A DNA stretch of 64,000 bases from assembly GCA_000004695.1 (NCBI GenBank), contig CM000153.2, positions 2,784,001 through 2,848,000 on the forward strand. Reading direction: 5' to 3'. The stretch is from Dictyostelium discoideum. Taxonomy: Eukaryota. Made by a program: the position numbers and the translations under genes. Positions 4,258 through 61,774 of the stretch are shown here, piece after piece. The notes below the pieces were generated by a model. It saw only the letters and a list, made by a program, of their open reading frames with translations. It made no database searches and was not told the origin of the DNA. Each line of letters opens with the position of its first letter. Positions within the stretch are counted from its first letter, which is position 1.

Positions 4258-4465
4258 TTATAAACAAACAAATAATAATTGAATTTTTTTAAATTTGAAA
4301 TTAAAATATCTTCTTAAGATTTTTTTTTTTTTTTTTTTTCTTTGATTTTTTTTTGATTTGAAAGTCAATCTGTTTTTTTTTTCATTTTATTTTTTTTATT
4401 TTTTTTATTTTTTTTATTTTTTTTATTTTAAAAATAATAACACCAAACCCAATATATACATAAAA

Positions 4466-4686
4466 ATGGATAATTTAAAGGAAATAAATAATGATAAATT
4501 ATTTTTTAAAGTTTTTAGAAATATTTATTTAAAAATGGTTATATTTTATCATATTAAATTATTAAATTATTATGAAATTAAAGATAATTATACATTTACA
4601 ATAGAACAATTTCAATCATTTAAATTTAAAGATCATTTATTAAAGTTAAGATTAATAGAACCAATACAAAAATTAGCAGCAGCAGC

Positions 4687-4724
<38 letters not shown>

Positions 4725-6220
4725 ATAATTATTATACAAAAGGTGAACTTTCAAAATTAATACCAAATTCAGTTAAAAGTTTATCAATAGATATTAATAA
4801 TCAATTAGTAGTTGGTGATATAAAAGATGGTTTAACAAGTTTAAAATTTGGTAAAAGATTTGATCAAATATTAACACCAGGATTATTAGTAACGGATGGT
4901 TCATCATTGGTTGAGTTTAATTCAGGTAGTGCATTTAGGAATGGTGATTTAGATTTACAAGTTGGGTCAATACCTTCATCTATTAAATCATTAACATTAG
5001 GTCACAGTTTTAATTCAGTTATTAATGAAAATGTTTTACCAGAAGGATTGGTAAAATTAAGATTTAAAGGATTTAATAAAATGATTGTAAGGAATTCTTT
5101 ACCAAATTCATTATTGGAATTGGAATTTGGTAGAAATTTCAATAGAGCTATAAGTGCGCATGGAACATTACCAAAATCATTGACATCGCTAACGTTGGGT
5201 ATCCACTTTACCCATGTTATCCATATTGGTACTTTACCACCAACACTAAAGAAACTAATTATTCAATCGGTTGGATATAATCAAAAATTTGAAAAAAAGG
5301 CATTACCAGATTCATTGGAGCATTTGGAGTTCAATAAAAATGGGTTCTTTAATCAACCAATTGCTGATAAATTTTTACCACCAAATTTGAAGACTTTGAT
5401 TCTTCCAAAACAATGGTCAAATAATTATGAACCAATTCTAGCACTCCAATTACCAATCAATTTAACTGATTTACAATTTTACTCGAATGAATGTTCTTTA
5501 TTTTTACAAAATGATTCAATACCATCAACAGTTTTAAATTTGAGGATTAATGGTATACTTGGTAATCATTATAGTTTTACAAGGGGTGCTAAAAGGTTAC
5601 AAGGAAATATTATACCTCCATCTATTACCTCTATTGAAACTGGTACGGTTATTAATCTTTCACATTGTATAAATTTAAAGAATTTCAAATTTGATGAAAG
5701 TTTTGATCAGAGGTCTCTATCAAAAGGTTATATACCATCAACTATAACAAATTTAAAACTTCCACCATTATGGAATAGAGAATTGGTATGTGCTAATGGT
5801 TTTGATTTATTTCCAAATTGTTTAAAATTTTTAGATTTAGCATCTTATAATTATCCAATTGGTGAAAATGTTTTACCACCAAATTTAGAATCATTAATAA
5901 TTAATAGTTGGAATTTACCAATTGAAAAAAATACATTACCTCAATCTATAACTTATTTATCAATGAAATCATTCAATCAAAGATTAACTCCATCATCTTT
6001 ACCAAAAAATTTAAAAACTTTAATTCTTCATAAATATAATGTATTATTAGTACCAAATTGTTTCCCACAATCAATTAGACTTATAAAACTTGGTTCAATC
6101 TTTGAAAGAAACAATATCCTATATCCATTCAATAATAATGTTACAATTATATTTGGTAAAAATGATATTAATTTTCCAATTTATCCAAAATTTGAAAATA
6201 AATTACGTTGTAGTGCATAA
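4466..6220 (+). CDS. FNIP-repeat protein (Dictyostelium-type FNIP/DUF repeats), single exon
   Basis: Recurrent ~22-aa units (..LP.SL..L.FG..FNQ.I..G.LP..L..L..) throughout. The real start is most likely ATG at 4466 (AAAAATGG context, MDNLKEINNDKLFFKVFRNIYL...); the 4358 start in the ORF track is poly-T read-through. Confidence 0.75.
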
Positions 6221-6282: not shown

Positions 6283-7622
6283 TCATTTTAATGGTTCTGG
6301 ATTATTAAAATGTGTTTGAAATCTATTAATTAATAAATTATTTGATTTTAATATTCTTGATATAAATGAACCAAAATTTAAATTTGAATTAATTTGAGTT
6401 AAACCATCTTTTGGACCTAGTGATAGACTAATGATTGGTGGTAATAATTTATGTTTTGCAAGTTGGTTTTTATTTTTACCATTTGATAAATCTTTTATAA
6501 CTTTAGCTACTATATTCCCATGTGAAAGTGCATTGTATGTGGTTTTAAGTTCATCAAAATCTGTAATATCACCAATTGCAAATATATTATCGTATCCTTG
6601 AACTTGACAACTTTGATTAACTTTAATTTGACCAATTTCATTAATTTCATTTGAAAAATTAGTTTTATAAGATTCACTATTTAATTTAATACCAATTGTC
6701 CAAATTACAAAATCAGATTCAATTGATAACCCATTTTTAGTTTTATATGTTTTTAATGAAACTTGAAAATTTGGTGATGTTTGATTAATAAAACATTGTT
6801 TTATATCATCTGGAATTTCAATTCTATCATTTAATATAACTGAAACGTTTCTTTTTTTCATAGATTCATTAATTAAATTATTGAATTTATTATTTGTTTT
6901 GGATGATACTAATTTATTACCACTATGAACAATCGTAATTTTCTTTGCCAATTCTTTGTTTTTAATTGGATATTTATTAATAATTTCTCCAACAACTTCA
7001 CAACCTACTGAACCACCCCCAACTATTAATATACTTTTAGCTTGTTTAATTTGTTCTGATATGTCTTTATAGTAATTAAAAATTTCAGTACCTGATATTT
7101 TTTCTAATGGTGCTTTAAAAGGTGCCAATGAATTTGAACCAGTTGCAATTACTAAATAATCAAATGTTAATTCTTTACCATCTTCTAATTTTACAAGAGT
7201 TGGTGAAATTTCAATAACTGTACCATAAATAAATTTACCATTTTTCAATAGTTTATCATATGGTATATATATTTTTTTTGCCAATTCTGGTTCAACTATT
7301 GCTCTTATTGATGCAATACTATTAAAAAATGTTTGTTTTCTTTCAACAACAGTTACTTCAAAATTTGAATCTAATAATTTTGCAACTTGGCTACCTCCAA
7401 AACCACACCCAATTATTAAAACTCTTTTCTTTTCACAATCTCTTGTAATACTACTAAAATAATTAAAAATCTCTATTAATTTAATTAAAATAATATAAAA
7501 AAAAAAAAATTAATTATCTATTTTTTTTTTTTTTTTTTTTTTTTTTATTAATTAAAACAAATTAAATAATTTAAATATATTTTACTTTTTAAAGATTCTG
7601 AAATATTATAAAGGTAATTCAT
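6283..7622 (-). CDS. AIF/AMID-like (AIFM2/FSP1-type) FAD-dependent pyridine-nucleotide-disulfide oxidoreductase, paralog 1. Tentative model join(7622..7586,7472..6283); 5' end uncertain.
   Basis: Colinear with the paralog at 10340..11503 from ..EKKRVLIIGCGFGG (Rossmann GxGxxG) to the C-terminus. The homologous ORF continues above the track's TTG start (7284) to ~7472 with no in-frame ATG, so it needs an upstream exon. The only candidate is ATGAATTACCTT...TTAAAAA|GTAAAA (7622..7586) joined to acceptor TTAATAG|AG at 7474/7473, which preserves frame. It could instead be 5'-truncated. Confidence 0.55.
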
Positions 7623-8017
7623 TTTTTAATAAAAATGAATTATATAAAATAAATTTATATAAACTATTTAGGATTATGATGTGTTGGAATAAAGATTAAG
7701 ATTAAGATTGATATTTTTTTTTTTTTTTTTTTTTTTTATAAATGGCATTTAAACATTTTAACAAGCAAGAATTACGAAATTAAATTAAAAATAATTTTTT
7801 TTTTTTTTTCATTATACCAAAGGGTGTTGCCAAATCAGAATTATGAAACCAAAAAAAAAAAAAAAATCTTAAAAAATTGTAAAAAAATGCATTCCATTTT
7901 AGAAGAGAAGAATAGAATTTTCTATTTGATTTTTTTTTTCCTTTTATTGATAATGGATTATTGTTTTTAATAATTATCTTATGAAAGATTGATTCTTAAA
8001 AAAGTTTTTTTTTTTTT

Positions 8018-8150
8018 TTATTCACCTGTTAAAACAATTTAATTTTACACAAAAAAAAAAAAAACTGGGCTAACTTTTTAATTTTTTTTTTTTTTTTTTT
8101 TATTCACCTGTTAAAACAATTTAATTTTACACAAAAAAAAAAAATATTTC
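8018..8150. repeat. Direct repeat (2 x ~50 bp: tattcacctgttaaaacaatttaattttacacaaaaaaaaaaaa) separated by ~25 bp
   Basis: Near-identical copies at 8018-8062 and 8096-8150. Confidence 0.8.
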
Positions 8151-8178
8151 CTTTGGGCTTGTTCCATAAAATCAAAAG

Positions 8179-8240
8179 GACAGTTGACGAAGTTTTTCTT
8201 TGAATGTAAGGAAATGTTAGATTTGCTGTAAGGTCAACTT
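8179..8240 (-). ncRNA. Class I RNA-type small ncRNA gene (copy A, ~62 nt)
   Basis: The minus strand reads AGTTGACCTTACAGCAAATCTAACATTTCCTTACATTCAAAGAAAAACTTCGTCAACTGTCC, then TTTTG. It has the 11-nt Class I motif CCTTACAGCAA next to a 5' AGTTGAC / 3' GTCAACT terminal stem. A DUSE-like ACCCAAAA box lies ~86 nt upstream on the same strand. Confidence 0.6.
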
Positions 8241-8325
8241 ATAATGTGATTACTTTTATATTTTTCACATTTTAGTTTTAATAACAAAAAATATAAAATT
8301 GAAAACATAAAAATAAAAAATAGGA

Positions 8326-8333
8326 TTTTGGGT
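8326..8333 (-). promoter_or_regulatory. DUSE-like box (ACCCAAAA) upstream of Class I RNA copy A
   Basis: Matches the Dictyostelium upstream sequence element consensus (A/T)CCCA(C/T)AA with one mismatch; position fits the downstream small RNA gene. Confidence 0.45.
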
Positions 8334-8434
8334 TCCACTTTGTTCTCATTAAATAAAAAATTTGTTTCTTTTTTTTTTTTTTTCAATTTTTTTTTTAAAT
8401 TTTTTTTTTAAAATTTTTTCATTTTTTCCCGAAA

Positions 8435-8442
8435 ACCCATAA
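8435..8442 (+). promoter_or_regulatory. DUSE box (ACCCATAA) ~60 nt upstream of the candidate ncRNA starting ~8500
   Basis: Perfect match to the (A/T)CCCA(C/T)AA consensus. The inverted-repeat arm conserved with the 9145-9312 copy begins at 8500, 58-63 nt downstream. Confidence 0.55.
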
Positions 8443-8499
8443 AAAGTTTTTATCAACCAAAAACTCCATTTTTAATTGAAATTCTAACATATGTTTAAT

Positions 8500-8763
8500 G
8501 GGCATATCAGGACATCGAGTTTAACACCTATTCAGACTCCAGAATACAAATTAATTTGAGCGGCAACGTTCTTATCAATCTGCAATACTCATATCATCTT
8601 AGAGGAATGATTGAAAAATCATAATTCTGATGGAGTACAAAAAATGCTGAGAAGTAACAGCATTAAAATAAACATTTAGACTATAGTTGTGAGTCTTAAA
8701 TTCCAACCAGTCAGTAGTGGCTAAAAATCTACAAAACATAAACTCGATCTGATAACTGAAATG
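8500..8763 (+). ncRNA. Candidate DUSE-driven ncRNA (~260 nt, class unknown)
   Basis: Starts GGGCATATCAGGACATCGAGTTTAAC... at the expected DUSE-to-TSS distance and ends at a T6 run (tgtcttttttatttttt). The 5' segment (catcgagttt) can pair with the 3' segment (aaactcgatc), giving a terminal stem. The first ~140 nt are ~90% identical to the inverted copy at 9145-9312. Confidence 0.4.
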
Positions 8764-9144
8764 TCTTTTTTATTTTTTTTTTATTTTTTTTTTTTAATAA
8801 TGATTACAGTAATGATGTGACAACATCCCTATTTATAAAAACAAAAACAGTATTATATACAACAGATCACCTGTCCTCCCAATAAAAGAAGTTTAAAAAA
8901 AAAAAAAAAAATTATTATAACTATAAACAACATTCGATAGAATATAAAATAATAGTAAATTTGGGTATAAATAACAATAATAATAAATAATATTTACATC
9001 AAATTTAATATTTATTTATTAATTATTAATTAATGTTTATTTTAATATTTAAGCTATTAAAAAAAAAAATAAAAAAATAAAAGAAAAAAAATTATTTAAT
9101 TATTATTTTTTTTTTAAACACTGATTAATCAATGGATATGTGAA

Positions 9145-9312
9145 TAATAAAAATAAAATAAATTTGTCAAATGAGATTATGTTCGGAGCACTGAATCTGG
9201 AATACAGTAAAGTTTGCACCTAATTCCTCTGACGATAGAGGAGTGCAGATTGATAAGAATGTTGCTCAAATTAATTTGTATTCTGGAGTCTGAATAGGTG
9301 TTAAACTCGATG
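9145..9312 (-). ncRNA. Second, inverted copy of the candidate ncRNA (~170 nt; shares the 5' ~140 nt with the 8500 copy, then diverges; ends at T-runs). No DUSE upstream, so possibly a pseudo-copy.
   Basis: The reverse complement of 9228-9312 matches 8500-8583 at ~95%; similarity extends more weakly to ~9200. The 3' terminal ~55 nt recur at 63097-63160. Confidence 0.3.
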
Positions 9313-9449
9313 TCTTGATATGCCCATTTTAAGTATATTTAAAATTAATTTGTTAGTTATCTTATAATTTGATTAACTTTTTATGTGTGTTTAAAAAAAA
9401 AAAAAAAAAGAAGAGAATAAAAAAAAGTTAAATTTTGTTTAACAATCAA

Positions 9450-9457
9450 TCCCAAAA
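9450..9457 (+). promoter_or_regulatory. DUSE box (TCCCAAAA) upstream of Class I-like copy B
   Basis: Consensus match; ~72 nt upstream of AGTTGACC. Confidence 0.45.
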
Positions 9458-9527
9458 ATTATTTTTTGGTTTTTAAATTCTGAAAAAAAACAAATTTTAA
9501 TTTTATTTTAAAATGTGAAAACAATTA

Positions 9528-9579
9528 AGTTGACCTTTAAGCAACTTTCTACATTCAAAGAAATCCTTCACCAACTGTC
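9528..9579 (+). ncRNA. Class I RNA-like gene, copy B (degenerate motif CCTTTAAGCAA; strong T8 terminator)
   Basis: AGTTGACCTTTAAGCAACTTTCTACATTCAAAGAAATCCTTCACCAACTGTC + TTTTTTTT. Colinear with copy A (same internal CATTCAAAGAAA segment) but in the opposite orientation, with a weaker terminal stem. Confidence 0.45.
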
Positions 9580-9774
9580 TTTTTTTTAATTTTATATTAT
9601 TTTTTTTTTTTATTTTTTTTTTTATTAATAACTTTTCCTTTCCATCATCTAATTTTTTGATTTACTTAATGTAAATTTGTGATTCTTGAAGGAAAAAATA
9701 GGATTTTTGGTTATTTAAAAAAAAAAAAAAAAAATCTTAATTATTTTTTTGATAATTTAATAAGAAAATAAAAA

Positions 9775-9814
<40 letters not shown>

Positions 9815-9820
9815 ATTCTG

Positions 9821-9828
9821 TCCCACAA
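9821..9828 (+). promoter_or_regulatory. DUSE box (TCCCACAA, perfect) upstream of Class I copy C
   Basis: Perfect consensus; ~89 nt upstream of AGTTGACC, the same spacing as copy A. Confidence 0.5.
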
Positions 9829-9915
9829 AATTATTTTTTATATAATATTTTTTTAATAATTAATTTTTTAATTCTTTTTTTTAATGTGTAAAACATTTAA
9901 GTTAACACATAATTA

Positions 9916-9973
9916 AGTTGACCTTACAGCAAATCTTACAATTTCATCCTAAGAAAAAATACAGTCAACTGTC
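9916..9973 (+). ncRNA. Class I RNA-type small ncRNA gene (copy C, ~58 nt)
   Basis: AGTTGACCTTACAGCAAATCTTACAATTTCATCCTAAGAAAAAATACAGTCAACTGTC + TTTTTTT. Perfect CCTTACAGCAA motif, a 7-bp terminal stem (AGTTGAC/GTCAACT) and a T-run terminator. Confidence 0.65.
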
Positions 9974-10234
9974 TTTTTTTAAATTTTTTTTTGGGATAAC
10001 CATTATTACCTCTCGTTTTAAAAACCAAAAAAAAATGATTTGGTTGGATTGTTGTATCTTTTTTTTTTTTTAATGTCAAATTTGTATTTTTAAATAAAAT
10101 TAAAAAAACAAATAAAATAATCCAAGATTTTAAATTAAAAATAATAAAAATAAAAAAATTAATAAAGGTAATTTAAATTTTATATTTCATAAACTCATTA
10201 ATCCTATTTTAAAATAAAGATATAGACAATTTTC

Positions 10235-10265
<31 letters not shown>

Positions 10266-10339
10266 TTTTAATATACTTAATAAATAATTTTTATTTTTTT
10301 ATTTTTATTTTTATTTTATTTTTTTTTTTTTTTTTTTTT

Positions 10340-11503
10340 TTATTGGATTAAAGGTTTTGGATTATTTAATTGAGAAATATAACGATCAATAAATAATGAT
10401 TTTGATTTTATCATTTTTGTAGCAAAAGAACCAAGACACATAGTTGGACTGATTTGAGTTATACCATCTTGAGGACCTAATGAAAGACTAAGTATTGGAC
10501 CTGATACTTTATGTTTTGCAAGCTTATCATTACTTTTACCTTTAGATAAAGCATCGATTGCTTTTGCTGCAATTGCAGCATGATAGCCAGCATTATATGC
10601 TGTTTTAAATTCATCAAAATCTGTACAATCACCAATAGCAAATACATTATTGTATCCTTGAACTTGACAGCTTAAATTTACTTTTAATTGTCCAGACTCA
10701 TTGATTACATTTGAGAAATGTGATTGATATGATTCACTATTTGTTTTAATACCAACTGTCCAAATTATTAAATCTGCTTGAATTGGTACACCCTTTTCAG
10801 TTGTATAATTTTGTGATGATATTTGAATATTTGGTGAAGTTTGATTTAAAAGGTTAGCTTTAATTTCATCTGGCATTGTAATTCTATCATTTAATATGAC
10901 TTCAACATTTCTCTTTTTCATTGCTTTTGAAACGACATTTGTAAATTTATCATTCATTTTTGGATTCACTAATTTACTACCACTGTGAACAATTGTAATT
11001 TTCTTTACCAATTCTGAATCTTTAACTGGATATTTCTCTACGATTTCCGATACCAATTCACAAGCAACTGCACCACCACCAACTATTAATATACTTTTAG
11101 CTTGTTTAATTTGTTGTGAAAAGTTTTGGAAATAATTTAAAATCTCACTACTACTTTTCTTTTCTAATGGTGCTTTAAATGGTGCCAATGAATTTGAACC
11201 AGTTGCAATTACTAAATAATCAAATGTTAATTCTTGACCATCTTCTAATTTTGCAAGAGTTGGTGAAATTTCAATAACCGTGCCAAAAATAAATTTACCA
11301 TTTTTCAATAGCTTATCATATGGTATATAAATCTTTTTAACTAATTCTGGTTCAACAACAGCTCTAACAGATCCAACACTATGGAAAAATGTTTGTTTTC
11401 TTTCAACTACAGTTACATTAAATTTTGAATCTAATTGTTTTGCAACTTCACAACCACCATAACCACCACCAATTATTAATACTCTTTTCTTTTCTGATGT
11501 CAT
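10340..11503 (-). CDS. AIF/AMID-like (AIFM2/FSP1-type) FAD-dependent oxidoreductase, paralog 2, single exon, 387 aa
   Basis: MTSEKKRVLIIGGGYGGCE (FAD GxGxxG), a second dinucleotide motif ILIVGGGAVACE, and the C-terminal AIGDCTDF motif typical of the pyridine-nucleotide-disulfide oxidoreductase/AMID family. This is the intact tandem partner of the 6283 gene. Confidence 0.8.
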   Translation of the reverse strand: MTSEKKRVLIIGGGYGGCEVAKQLDSKFNVTVVERKQTFFHSVGSVRAVVEPELVKKIYIPYDKLLKNGKFIFGTVIEISPTLAKLEDGQELTFDYLVIATGSNSLAPFKAPLEKKSSSEILNYFQNFSQQIKQAKSILIVGGGAVACELVSEIVEKYPVKDSELVKKITIVHSGSKLVNPKMNDKFTNVVSKAMKKRNVEVILNDRITMPDEIKANLLNQTSPNIQISSQNYTTEKGVPIQADLIIWTVGIKTNSESYQSHFSNVINESGQLKVNLSCQVQGYNNVFAIGDCTDFDEFKTAYNAGYHAAIAAKAIDALSKGKSNDKLAKHKVSGPILSLSLGPQDGITQISPTMCLGSFATKMIKSKSLFIDRYISQLNNPKPLIQ

Positions 11504-57023: not shown

Positions 57024-57095
57024 TCCTTGTTGGTCTAGTGGTGAGGATTTTCGCCTGTCACGCGAAAGGCCCGGGTTCAATTCCCGGACAGGGAG
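57024..57095 (+). tRNA. tRNA-Asp (anticodon GUC)
   Basis: TCCTTGTTGGTCTAGTGGTGAGGATTTTCGCCTGTCACGCGAAAGGCCCGGGTTCAATTCCCGGACAGGGAG: cloverleaf with anticodon loop CTGTCAC, T-loop GGTTCAATTCC, 7-bp acceptor stem, discriminator G. Confidence 0.85.
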
Positions 57096-57105
57096 CTTTT
57101 TGAAA

Positions 57106-61640: not shown

Positions 61641-61702
61641 TTAAATTTTTTGGATGCATTTAGAAAATCGGAACTTCGGATTTGTAGGGATTTTTCAAAA
61701 AG

Positions 61703-61774
61703 CTCCCTGTCCGGGAATTGAACCCGGGCCTTTCGCGTGACAGGCGAAAATCCTCACCACTAGACCAACAAGGA
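61703..61774 (-). tRNA. tRNA-Asp (GUC), second copy in inverted orientation
   Basis: The reverse complement is identical to the 57024-57095 gene. ~30 bp of 5' flank and ~55 bp of 3' flank are also duplicated, and the 5' flank+stem fragment (attcaaaaatatccaataatccttgttggt) occurs a third time at 61850-61880. Confidence 0.85.

Follow-up and report, generated by a model that had tools for sequence, protein, structure and literature searches.

In this study, we analysed a stretch of 64,000 nucleotides (nt) of the Dictyostelium discoideum AX4 genome (assembly GCA_000004695.1, contig CM000153.2, positions 2,784,001 to 2,848,000 of the forward strand), hereafter the window, to which all AX4 positions below refer and whose G+C content is about 20%. 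It carries two adjacent oxidoreductase genes, aifB and aifA, and our main subject is how the second of these obtains its first exon and its N-terminus. Both genes lie on the minus strand, where they appear as two long open reading frames (ORFs), one at 6283-7284, with the same frame running on upstream, and one at 10340-11503. A same-strand pair of paralogs had been proposed here in an earlier note on the letters of this DNA, and the pair is as that note described it. Its terms "upstream" and "downstream" followed plus-strand coordinates, whereas in the direction of transcription aifB lies upstream of aifA. The stop codon of aifB (10340) and the ATG of aifA (7622) are 2.7 kb apart, which the note had given as 3 kb. 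The paralogy judged by eye at about 60% identity is real, but that value was somewhat too low; the two proteins are 68% identical (260/382 residues, ungapped, BLASTP). A third or degenerate aif copy was found by tblastn neither in the spacer nor in the rest of the window.

The gene aifB (10340-11503, minus strand) is a single-exon coding sequence (CDS) of 387 amino acids (aa) plus a stop codon, recognised from its ORF, from an exact protein look-up and from its Pyr_redox_2 match. It starts MTSEKKRVLIIGGGYGG, and its first codons, ATG ACA TCA GAA AAG, read MTSEKKRVLIIGGG. The exact-sequence look-up identified it as DDB_G0285005 / XP_639989.1 / UniProt Q54NS8, "Apoptosis-inducing factor homolog B", and this record matches the normal ATG start that had been assigned to the "downstream" copy.

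The structure of aifA is less simple. On the one hand, the continuous frame 5' of its Rossmann motif (FFFFYIILIKLIEIFNYFSSITRDCEKKRV...) is open only to a stop at about 7503 and contains no ATG, as had been observed before. On the other hand, a two-exon model restores a complete protein. Coding exon 1 (7586-7622, minus strand) is 37 nt long, an ATG and 34 further nt (ATGAATTACCTTTATAATATTTCAGAATCTTTAAAAA), and is followed by the donor GTAAAA; it encodes MNYLYNISESLK and the first base of codon 13. The intron (7473-7585, minus strand) has 113 nt with GT...AG ends and an A+T content of about 95%, and its acceptor reads ...TTAATAG/AG at 7473/7472. Exon 2 (6283-7472, minus strand) begins with the two bases that complete codon 13 and runs through residues 14-408 to the stop codon. 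The leftover base of exon 1 and the AG of exon 2 form Lys13, after which the reading frame enters IFNYFSSITRDCEKKRVLIIGCGFGG; the linker IFNYFSSITRDCEKK then leads to the Rossmann motif VLIIGCGFGG. A second AG 19 nt into exon 2 (TTATTTTAG/TAG) would shift the frame if it were used. The earlier note had proposed these two exons, and its exon 1 at 7622-7586 and the resulting protein hold exactly; only its acceptor, placed at 7474/7473, was one base off.

The spliced model is an exact match to DDB_G0285003 / UniProt Q54NS9, named "Apoptosis-inducing factor homolog A", of 408 aa. A second AX4 annotation (KAM9942648.1) gives the same 408-aa protein, and the strains FIR, FIW and FIY have 408-aa aifA models that are 95-96% identical to the AX4 protein. 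Both genes and the exact two-exon aifA model are already present in dictyBase, GenBank and UniProt, and we claim no novelty in gene finding. Of modest interest beyond the annotation are a lineage-restricted ATG on a conserved exon, a strongly amphipathic N-terminus instead of a myristoyl signal, a conversion tract and an inserted cluster of non-coding RNA genes.

Both proteins match Pfam Pyr_redox_2 (PF07992) over their full length, with E-values of 6.5e-39 for aifA and 1.4e-39 for aifB. Their best sequence matches in the PDB are FSP1/AIFM2 chains (1.4e-55 to 4e-46), whereas AIFM1 and bacterial type II NADH dehydrogenases (NDH-2) reach about 1e-11 or weaker. Modelling of aifA by AlphaFold on 43 homologues gave a mean predicted local distance difference test score (pLDDT) of 89.9 and a predicted template modelling score of 0.87. 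When this model was compared with known structures by Foldseek, FSP1 gave template modelling (TM) scores of 0.79-0.83 on the query and 0.89-0.93 on the target, the best being 0.83/0.93, at 29-33% identity; NDH-2 and AIF gave about 0.6-0.7. Both GxGxxG motifs of aifA were found, namely G34-C-G36-F-G-G39 for flavin adenine dinucleotide (FAD) and G164-G-G166-S-V-G169 for reduced nicotinamide adenine dinucleotide (phosphate) (NAD(P)H). Three of these glycines (G34, G36 and G164) do not vary across the 43 homologues, and conservation is at least 90% for G39, G165, G166 and G169. The corresponding motifs of aifB are GGGYGG and GGGAVA. As a family assignment, FSP1/AIFM2-type FAD-dependent NAD(P)H oxidoreductases is right for both proteins on sequence and modelled fold, in line with the AIF/AMID/FSP1-like label they had been given before. 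By analogy with other members of the family, they are most likely NAD(P)H:quinone reductases. A machine-learning prediction of EC 1.6.5.9 for aifB (PMC13366525) points the same way. Our literature search found no functional study of either gene, nor of a role against lipid peroxidation in Dictyostelium.

We compared aifA in six genomes: AX4, D. discoideum ACTFIW, "D. cf. discoideum" ACTFIY and ACTFIZ, D. citrinum and D. dimigraforme. In all of them, the main exon holds an intact ORF of 383-387 codons. Between genomes, the pairwise ratio of non-synonymous to synonymous substitution rates (dN/dS) was 0.14-0.21 for aifA and 0.06-0.18 for aifB, and the changes seen in single aifA lineages were mostly synonymous (in D. 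citrinum, 20 synonymous against 6 non-synonymous). The Q54NS9 protein has also been quantified by mass spectrometry, with levels falling early in development (PMC6830349, Table 1). The earlier note had offered, as an alternative to splicing, that aifA has lost its 5' end and is a pseudogene; it would then be a remnant of the duplication. Such a gene would be expected to look as aifA does at its 5' end, where no ATG stands opposite the aifB start and none occurs in the continuous ORF, but in other respects aifA does not resemble one: its frame is nowhere disrupted, its dN/dS is similar to that of aifB and not near 1, and the glycine motifs for FAD and NAD(P)H are retained. Considering the intact ORF, the low dN/dS and the detected, developmentally regulated protein, we dropped the pseudogene reading, to which we give next to no chance.

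To assess the first exon, we made an alignment of the aifA 5' region across all six genomes and examined it segment by segment. In the 100 columns upstream of exon 1, 28 were invariant and 54 gapped, with a mean pairwise identity of 0.64. The exon 1 block rose to 0.95 (37 columns, 33 of them invariant and none gapped), and the intron fell to 0.43 (28 invariant and 102 gapped columns out of 180). Identity then returned to 0.86 in the exon 2 linker (38 columns, 24 invariant, none gapped) and stood at 0.83 in the Rossmann-coding DNA, with 31 invariant and 3 gapped among 43 columns. Conservation drops exactly at an invariant GT and returns at an invariant AG, and this is the pattern that a genuine succession of exon, intron and exon should leave. 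The junction is supported by this comparison and by two database annotations, and given both we consider it highly probable that the two-exon model is right for D. discoideum.

The new exon would give aifA an N-terminal extension that aifB does not have. The proteins of the outgroups start just before the Rossmann strand, with MSEKKK in D. purpureum and MSGNKK in T. lacteum. From these short starts we conclude that the aifB type of start is ancestral and that the extension of aifA was gained after the duplication. In aifA, the codon opposite the aifB Met encodes Arg, Glu or Lys. Within the extension (MNYLYNISESLKKIFNYFSSITRDC), the best window of 18 residues has a hydrophobic moment of 0.67, a value reached by none of 5000 shuffles, while the best aifB window has 0.33. 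Residues Y3, L4, I7, L11, I14, F15, F18 and I21 fall on one helix face, and AlphaFold predicts residues 3-20 as a helix undocked from the domain, at a pLDDT of about 50. The first 25 residues carry a net charge of +1 and three acidic residues. Such a charge matches a mitochondrial presequence poorly and would better suit an interfacial helix that binds membranes or lipid droplets. The earlier note had suggested that the new N-terminus may alter the targeting of aifA, and this is a reasonable idea.

Several observations weigh against this account of aifA. The donor GTAAAA has no G at +5. The exact-sequence cluster of the 408-aa protein consists of genome annotations, with no transcript-derived copy among them, and no near-identical aifA protein turned up among those assembled from public sequencing runs (Logan). 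The predicted N-terminal helix is of low confidence. Moreover, of the 11 exon 1 codons after the start, 8 are invariant and 3 show conservative amino-acid changes (I/L, S/T and L/F), and none varies synonymously only, whereas the codons of the main CDS fall at 49%, 23% and 28% into the invariant, amino-acid change and synonymous-only classes (P ~0.03 for 0/11). The constraint on exon 1 at the nucleotide level may thus not be purely coding. Lastly, the exon 1 ATG is absent from three of the six genomes, all of which keep aifA under purifying selection. Outside D. discoideum, it is therefore uncertain where translation of the conserved exon starts, and its ATG may have been acquired recently.

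The pattern of codon variation raises the question of whether the block is coding at all. It could be a regulatory element or part of the 5' untranslated region, with aifA starting elsewhere in D. discoideum too. The lack of synonymous-only variation would fit with this, as would the conservation of the block above the level of Rossmann-coding DNA and the variable state of its ATG. However, a single frame, that of the model, runs open across the block as far as the donor and continues into exon 2 without a shift, and the limits of conservation coincide with GT and AG. The unspliced ORF offers no in-frame ATG, and the promoter of about 350 bp shared with D. citrinum and D. dimigraforme contains no other conserved block that bears an ATG. 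All D. discoideum-type models (the two AX4 records, FIR, FIW and FIY) use the start in exon 1. RNAalifold predicted no pairs in the block, so a conserved RNA structure was not found either. Accordingly, we regard a non-coding block as very improbable. A strong non-coding constraint, considered at one point, was not upheld, since the direct count is only mildly unusual. The block was also considered as a repeat or mobile element, which is ruled out by its uniqueness in the window (at up to 3 mismatches).

A coding exon 1 remains our preferred reading, and the difference between genomes then concerns its first codon. This codon is ATG in AX4, ACTFIW and ACTFIY (and in ACTFIR, judged from the protein). 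It is ATA in ACTFIZ, and both D. citrinum and D. dimigraforme read ATT there. The 34 nt that follow are 96.5% identical, free of gaps and free of stops in 6/6 genomes. In the three genomes without the ATG, a stop lies a few codons upstream of the block with no ATG in between. An in-frame ATG occurs within the intron once each in ACTFIZ and D. dimigraforme and not in D. citrinum. The deposited models deal with this in three ways that are unrelated to one another: the D. citrinum model starts 189 nt upstream of the exon 1 block, the D. dimigraforme model uses an ATG that overlaps the conserved donor, and the ACTFIZ model (547 aa, P0009) fuses aifA to an upstream gene of 167 aa. In these genomes, a near-cognate AUU or AUA start, a lineage-specific start with intron retention, or an unrecognised exon are all possible.

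Considering this variation, exon 1 may be spliced as modelled while its ATG is a recent gain of D. discoideum. Ancestrally, translation would have begun at AUU or AUA, with the A-rich context unchanged (AAAAAAUU AAU), or lineage-specific intronic ATGs would serve with the intron retained; either kind of start would persist in D. citrinum, D. dimigraforme and ACTFIZ, and D. discoideum would have "canonicalised" its own. Several features would be accounted for in this way, namely a first codon that varies in front of nearly identical sequence, the purifying selection on lineages without the ATG, the discordant deposited models and the intronic ATGs of two genomes. With the branching order of the aifA sequences, (((discoideum strains, FIY), FIZ), citrinum), dimigraforme, the most parsimonious ancestral first codon is also ATT. 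On the other side, AUU and AUA are weak initiators in other eukaryotes, and we found no paper that deals with non-AUG initiation in Dictyostelium in its title or abstract. The comparison draws on one assembly per species, our search of the literature on the new Dictyostelium genome assemblies gave nothing usable, and an unrecognised upstream exon could explain the same data. We therefore consider a recent ATG of this kind unlikely, although clearly less so than a non-coding block. If true, it would be a natural and datable birth of a start codon after a tandem duplicate lost its ancestral start, and the first indication of near-cognate initiation in dictyostelids. In either case, an ATG that is not conserved on an exon that is conserved makes a small testable puzzle of how a duplicate regains a translation start.

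In five of the six genomes, there is an ATGG just upstream of GAAAAG that is out of frame by one base; it reads TATGG in FIW and GATGG in the other four. This could be taken as a relic of the ancestral start, shifted by an indel relative to ATGACATCAGAAAAG of aifB. We do not claim this, since the ungapped alignment, with Arg, Glu or Lys opposite the old ATG, explains the data equally well. Translation from the ATGG would give only MVKRKEF before a stop.

The pair goes back to a tandem duplication, as had been proposed. The two genes are adjacent on the same strand in the six genomes, and the order PRA1-family gene, aifB, aifA, FNIP-repeat gene was found in AX4 and five further genomes. In AX4, the FNIP-repeat protein is encoded by a long ORF on the plus strand (4358-6220), 3' of aifA and convergent with it. 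A gene with the Pfam FNIP repeat follows aifA in D. citrinum and three D. discoideum-type genomes, while in D. dimigraforme three other genes intervene. D. purpureum has one aif copy in a different neighbourhood. Neighbour joining placed the aifA clade as sister to the aifB clade and left D. purpureum outside both. The aifA branch is the longer one, and the outgroups are 59-60% identical to aifB and 53-54% to aifA. Between paralogs, dN/dS was 0.30-0.54, indicating that change was faster after the duplication. We place the duplication after the split from D. purpureum and before the radiation of D. discoideum, D. citrinum and D. dimigraforme.

One part of the two genes does not share this divergence. 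There is a tract, about 150 nt long, in which nucleotide identity between the paralogs is 93-98% and identity at third positions is 0.90-0.97, against about 0.65 elsewhere. The tract corresponds to aligned codons 58-105 of the trimmed CDS alignment; with the residue offset of 22 between aifA and aifB in the BLASTP alignment, it covers 7120-7263 (minus strand, residues ~83-130) in aifA and 11180-11323 (minus strand, residues ~61-108) in aifB. Within a genome, the two copies of the tract differ by a single nt in ACTFIZ, by 5 nt in D. citrinum and by 7 nt in AX4, whereas between species the differences amount to 9-19 nt. D. citrinum A and B have derived bases in common. By contrast, over aligned codons 150-383 of the same trimmed alignment, the A/B differences number about 175-198 nt regardless of species. 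Judged from these comparisons, the tract is one homogenised by gene conversion.

Taken together, we hold with considerable confidence that the best overall explanation is an annotated head-to-tail tandem pair of FSP1-family genes in which aifA has a new first exon. In this reading, aifB represents the ancestral intronless gene with a short N-terminus (MTSEKK...). In aifA, the ancestral ATG has given way to a codon for Arg, Glu or Lys, and in D. discoideum the gene would be expressed from the 37-nt coding exon spliced over the 113-nt intron, adding about 25 residues. Of these, residues 3-20 are predicted to form a strongly amphipathic helix ahead of the Rossmann fold, which may act as a peripheral anchor on a membrane or lipid surface, or as a sorting signal. 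The helix could stand in for the N-myristoylation of animal FSP1 and set the location of aifA apart from that of aifB. Our analysis shows which genes these are, that the splice preserves the frame, that the exon and both splice sites are conserved, that selection is purifying, that the fold is of FSP1 type and that the N-terminus is amphipathic; we infer the role of the helix and the enzymatic activity, as well as the use of the junction in the mRNA.

The spacer between the two genes differs strongly in size among the genomes. From the aifB stop to the aifA exon 1 block, it measures about 0.57 kb in D. citrinum and D. dimigraforme (L001 7611-8189 and L002 7403-7964), about 2.1 kb in ACTFIW, 2.7 kb in AX4, 3.0 kb in ACTFIY and 5.1 kb in ACTFIZ. 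Only the 350 bp of the AX4 spacer next to aifA align to D. citrinum and D. dimigraforme. The remaining ~2.3 kb (7970-10339) has no counterpart in those two species and is an insertion confined to the D. discoideum complex. Within it lie two Class I RNA genes (Rfam RF01414, gathering score 41.5), one at 8181-8238 on the minus strand (55.5 bits) and one at 9917-9971 on the plus strand (51.2 bits), which point away from each other. Upstream of each lies a CCCA motif like the Dictyostelium upstream sequence element (DUSE), at ~8325-8335 and 9821-9828, and an AAATGTG or TAATGTG box stands ~30-60 nt before each RNA start. A DUSE-like motif and a TGTG box are the architecture of D. discoideum Class I genes (PMC7919456). 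The two genes are probably among the known ~40 loci.

Between the Class I genes, we found an 88-nt inverted repeat (8474-8561 and 9264-9351) whose arms are 88% complementary, with ~110 nt alignable. Its conserved core (~8497-8610 and 9205-9322) lies in islands that are relatively rich in G+C, and the left copy has a DUSE-like AAAACCCATAAAAAG ~55 nt upstream. As a structured RNA, the repeat gave no Rfam match, and it did not fold better than its shuffled versions (z-scores of +0.5 and -1.6). Possible origins are two small-RNA genes of an undescribed class or the remnant of a duplication. Just 3' of the minus-strand Class I RNA gene, there is a perfect 58-nt direct repeat (T15-ATTCACCTGTTAAAACAATTTAATTTTACAC-A12) at 8005-8062 and 8087-8144, 82 nt from start to start. 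In the aifA promoter (7700-7900), short blocks are conserved with D. citrinum and D. dimigraforme, one with the twice-repeated motif TTTCATAATTCT(G/T)ATTTG(G/T)CAA and another with ATCAATCTTAATCTTAAT; we regard these blocks as candidate regulatory sites of aifA.

The ACTFIZ spacer carries two nearly identical copies of the 167-aa gene (L003 5968-6471 and 8001-8504), the second being the one mis-fused to aifA in the 547-aa model. The encoded protein has a start that resembles a signal peptide and a tail rich in Ser, Thr and Ala (MLNKSSLFLAAVAFSNA...). The gene is absent from the AX4 window. Elsewhere in the window, two transfer RNA genes for Asp(GTC) lie in opposite orientation 4.6 kb apart, at 57024-57096 on the plus strand and 61702-61774 on the minus strand, both with 61 bits (Rfam).

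Dictyostelium FSP1-type enzymes are so far uncharacterised. In a genetically easy organism, the aifA/aifB pair would be a tractable system for studying how FSP1-like quinone reductases without a myristoyl anchor reach membranes or lipid droplets. The closest known system is animal FSP1/AIFM2 (AMID), an NAD(P)H:ubiquinone / vitamin K oxidoreductase. Both Dictyostelium proteins resemble it in the fold of two dinucleotide-binding domains with a C-terminal part, in both glycine-rich motifs and in a core of ~370-390 aa. They differ from it at the N-terminus. In animal FSP1, N-myristoylation of Gly2 targets the protein to membranes and lipid droplets, according to a preprint (bioRxiv 10.64898/2026.05.19.726342). 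The Met-Gly signal is missing in our two proteins, as aifA begins MNYL... and aifB MTSE..., with Asn and Thr at residue 2; without Gly2, neither can be N-myristoylated. In the aligned dictyostelid homologues, position 2 is Ser, Thr, Asn, Phe, Ile or Leu, or Gly in one doubtful D. citrinum model. Accordingly, the Met-Gly myristoylation signal is a trait of animal FSP1 proteins rather than of the fold, and aifA carries instead its 25-residue extension with the predicted amphipathic helix. NDH-2, such as yeast Ndi1, and mitochondrial AIFM1 belong with aifA and aifB to the Pyr_redox_2 superfamily and have the same overall fold. NDH-2 enzymes attach to membranes by amphipathic helices at the C-terminus, and AIFM1 carries a long presequence for mitochondria. 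Both are far more distant from the Dictyostelium pair, at E-values of about 1e-11 and 17-22% identity, compared with 1e-55 for FSP1.

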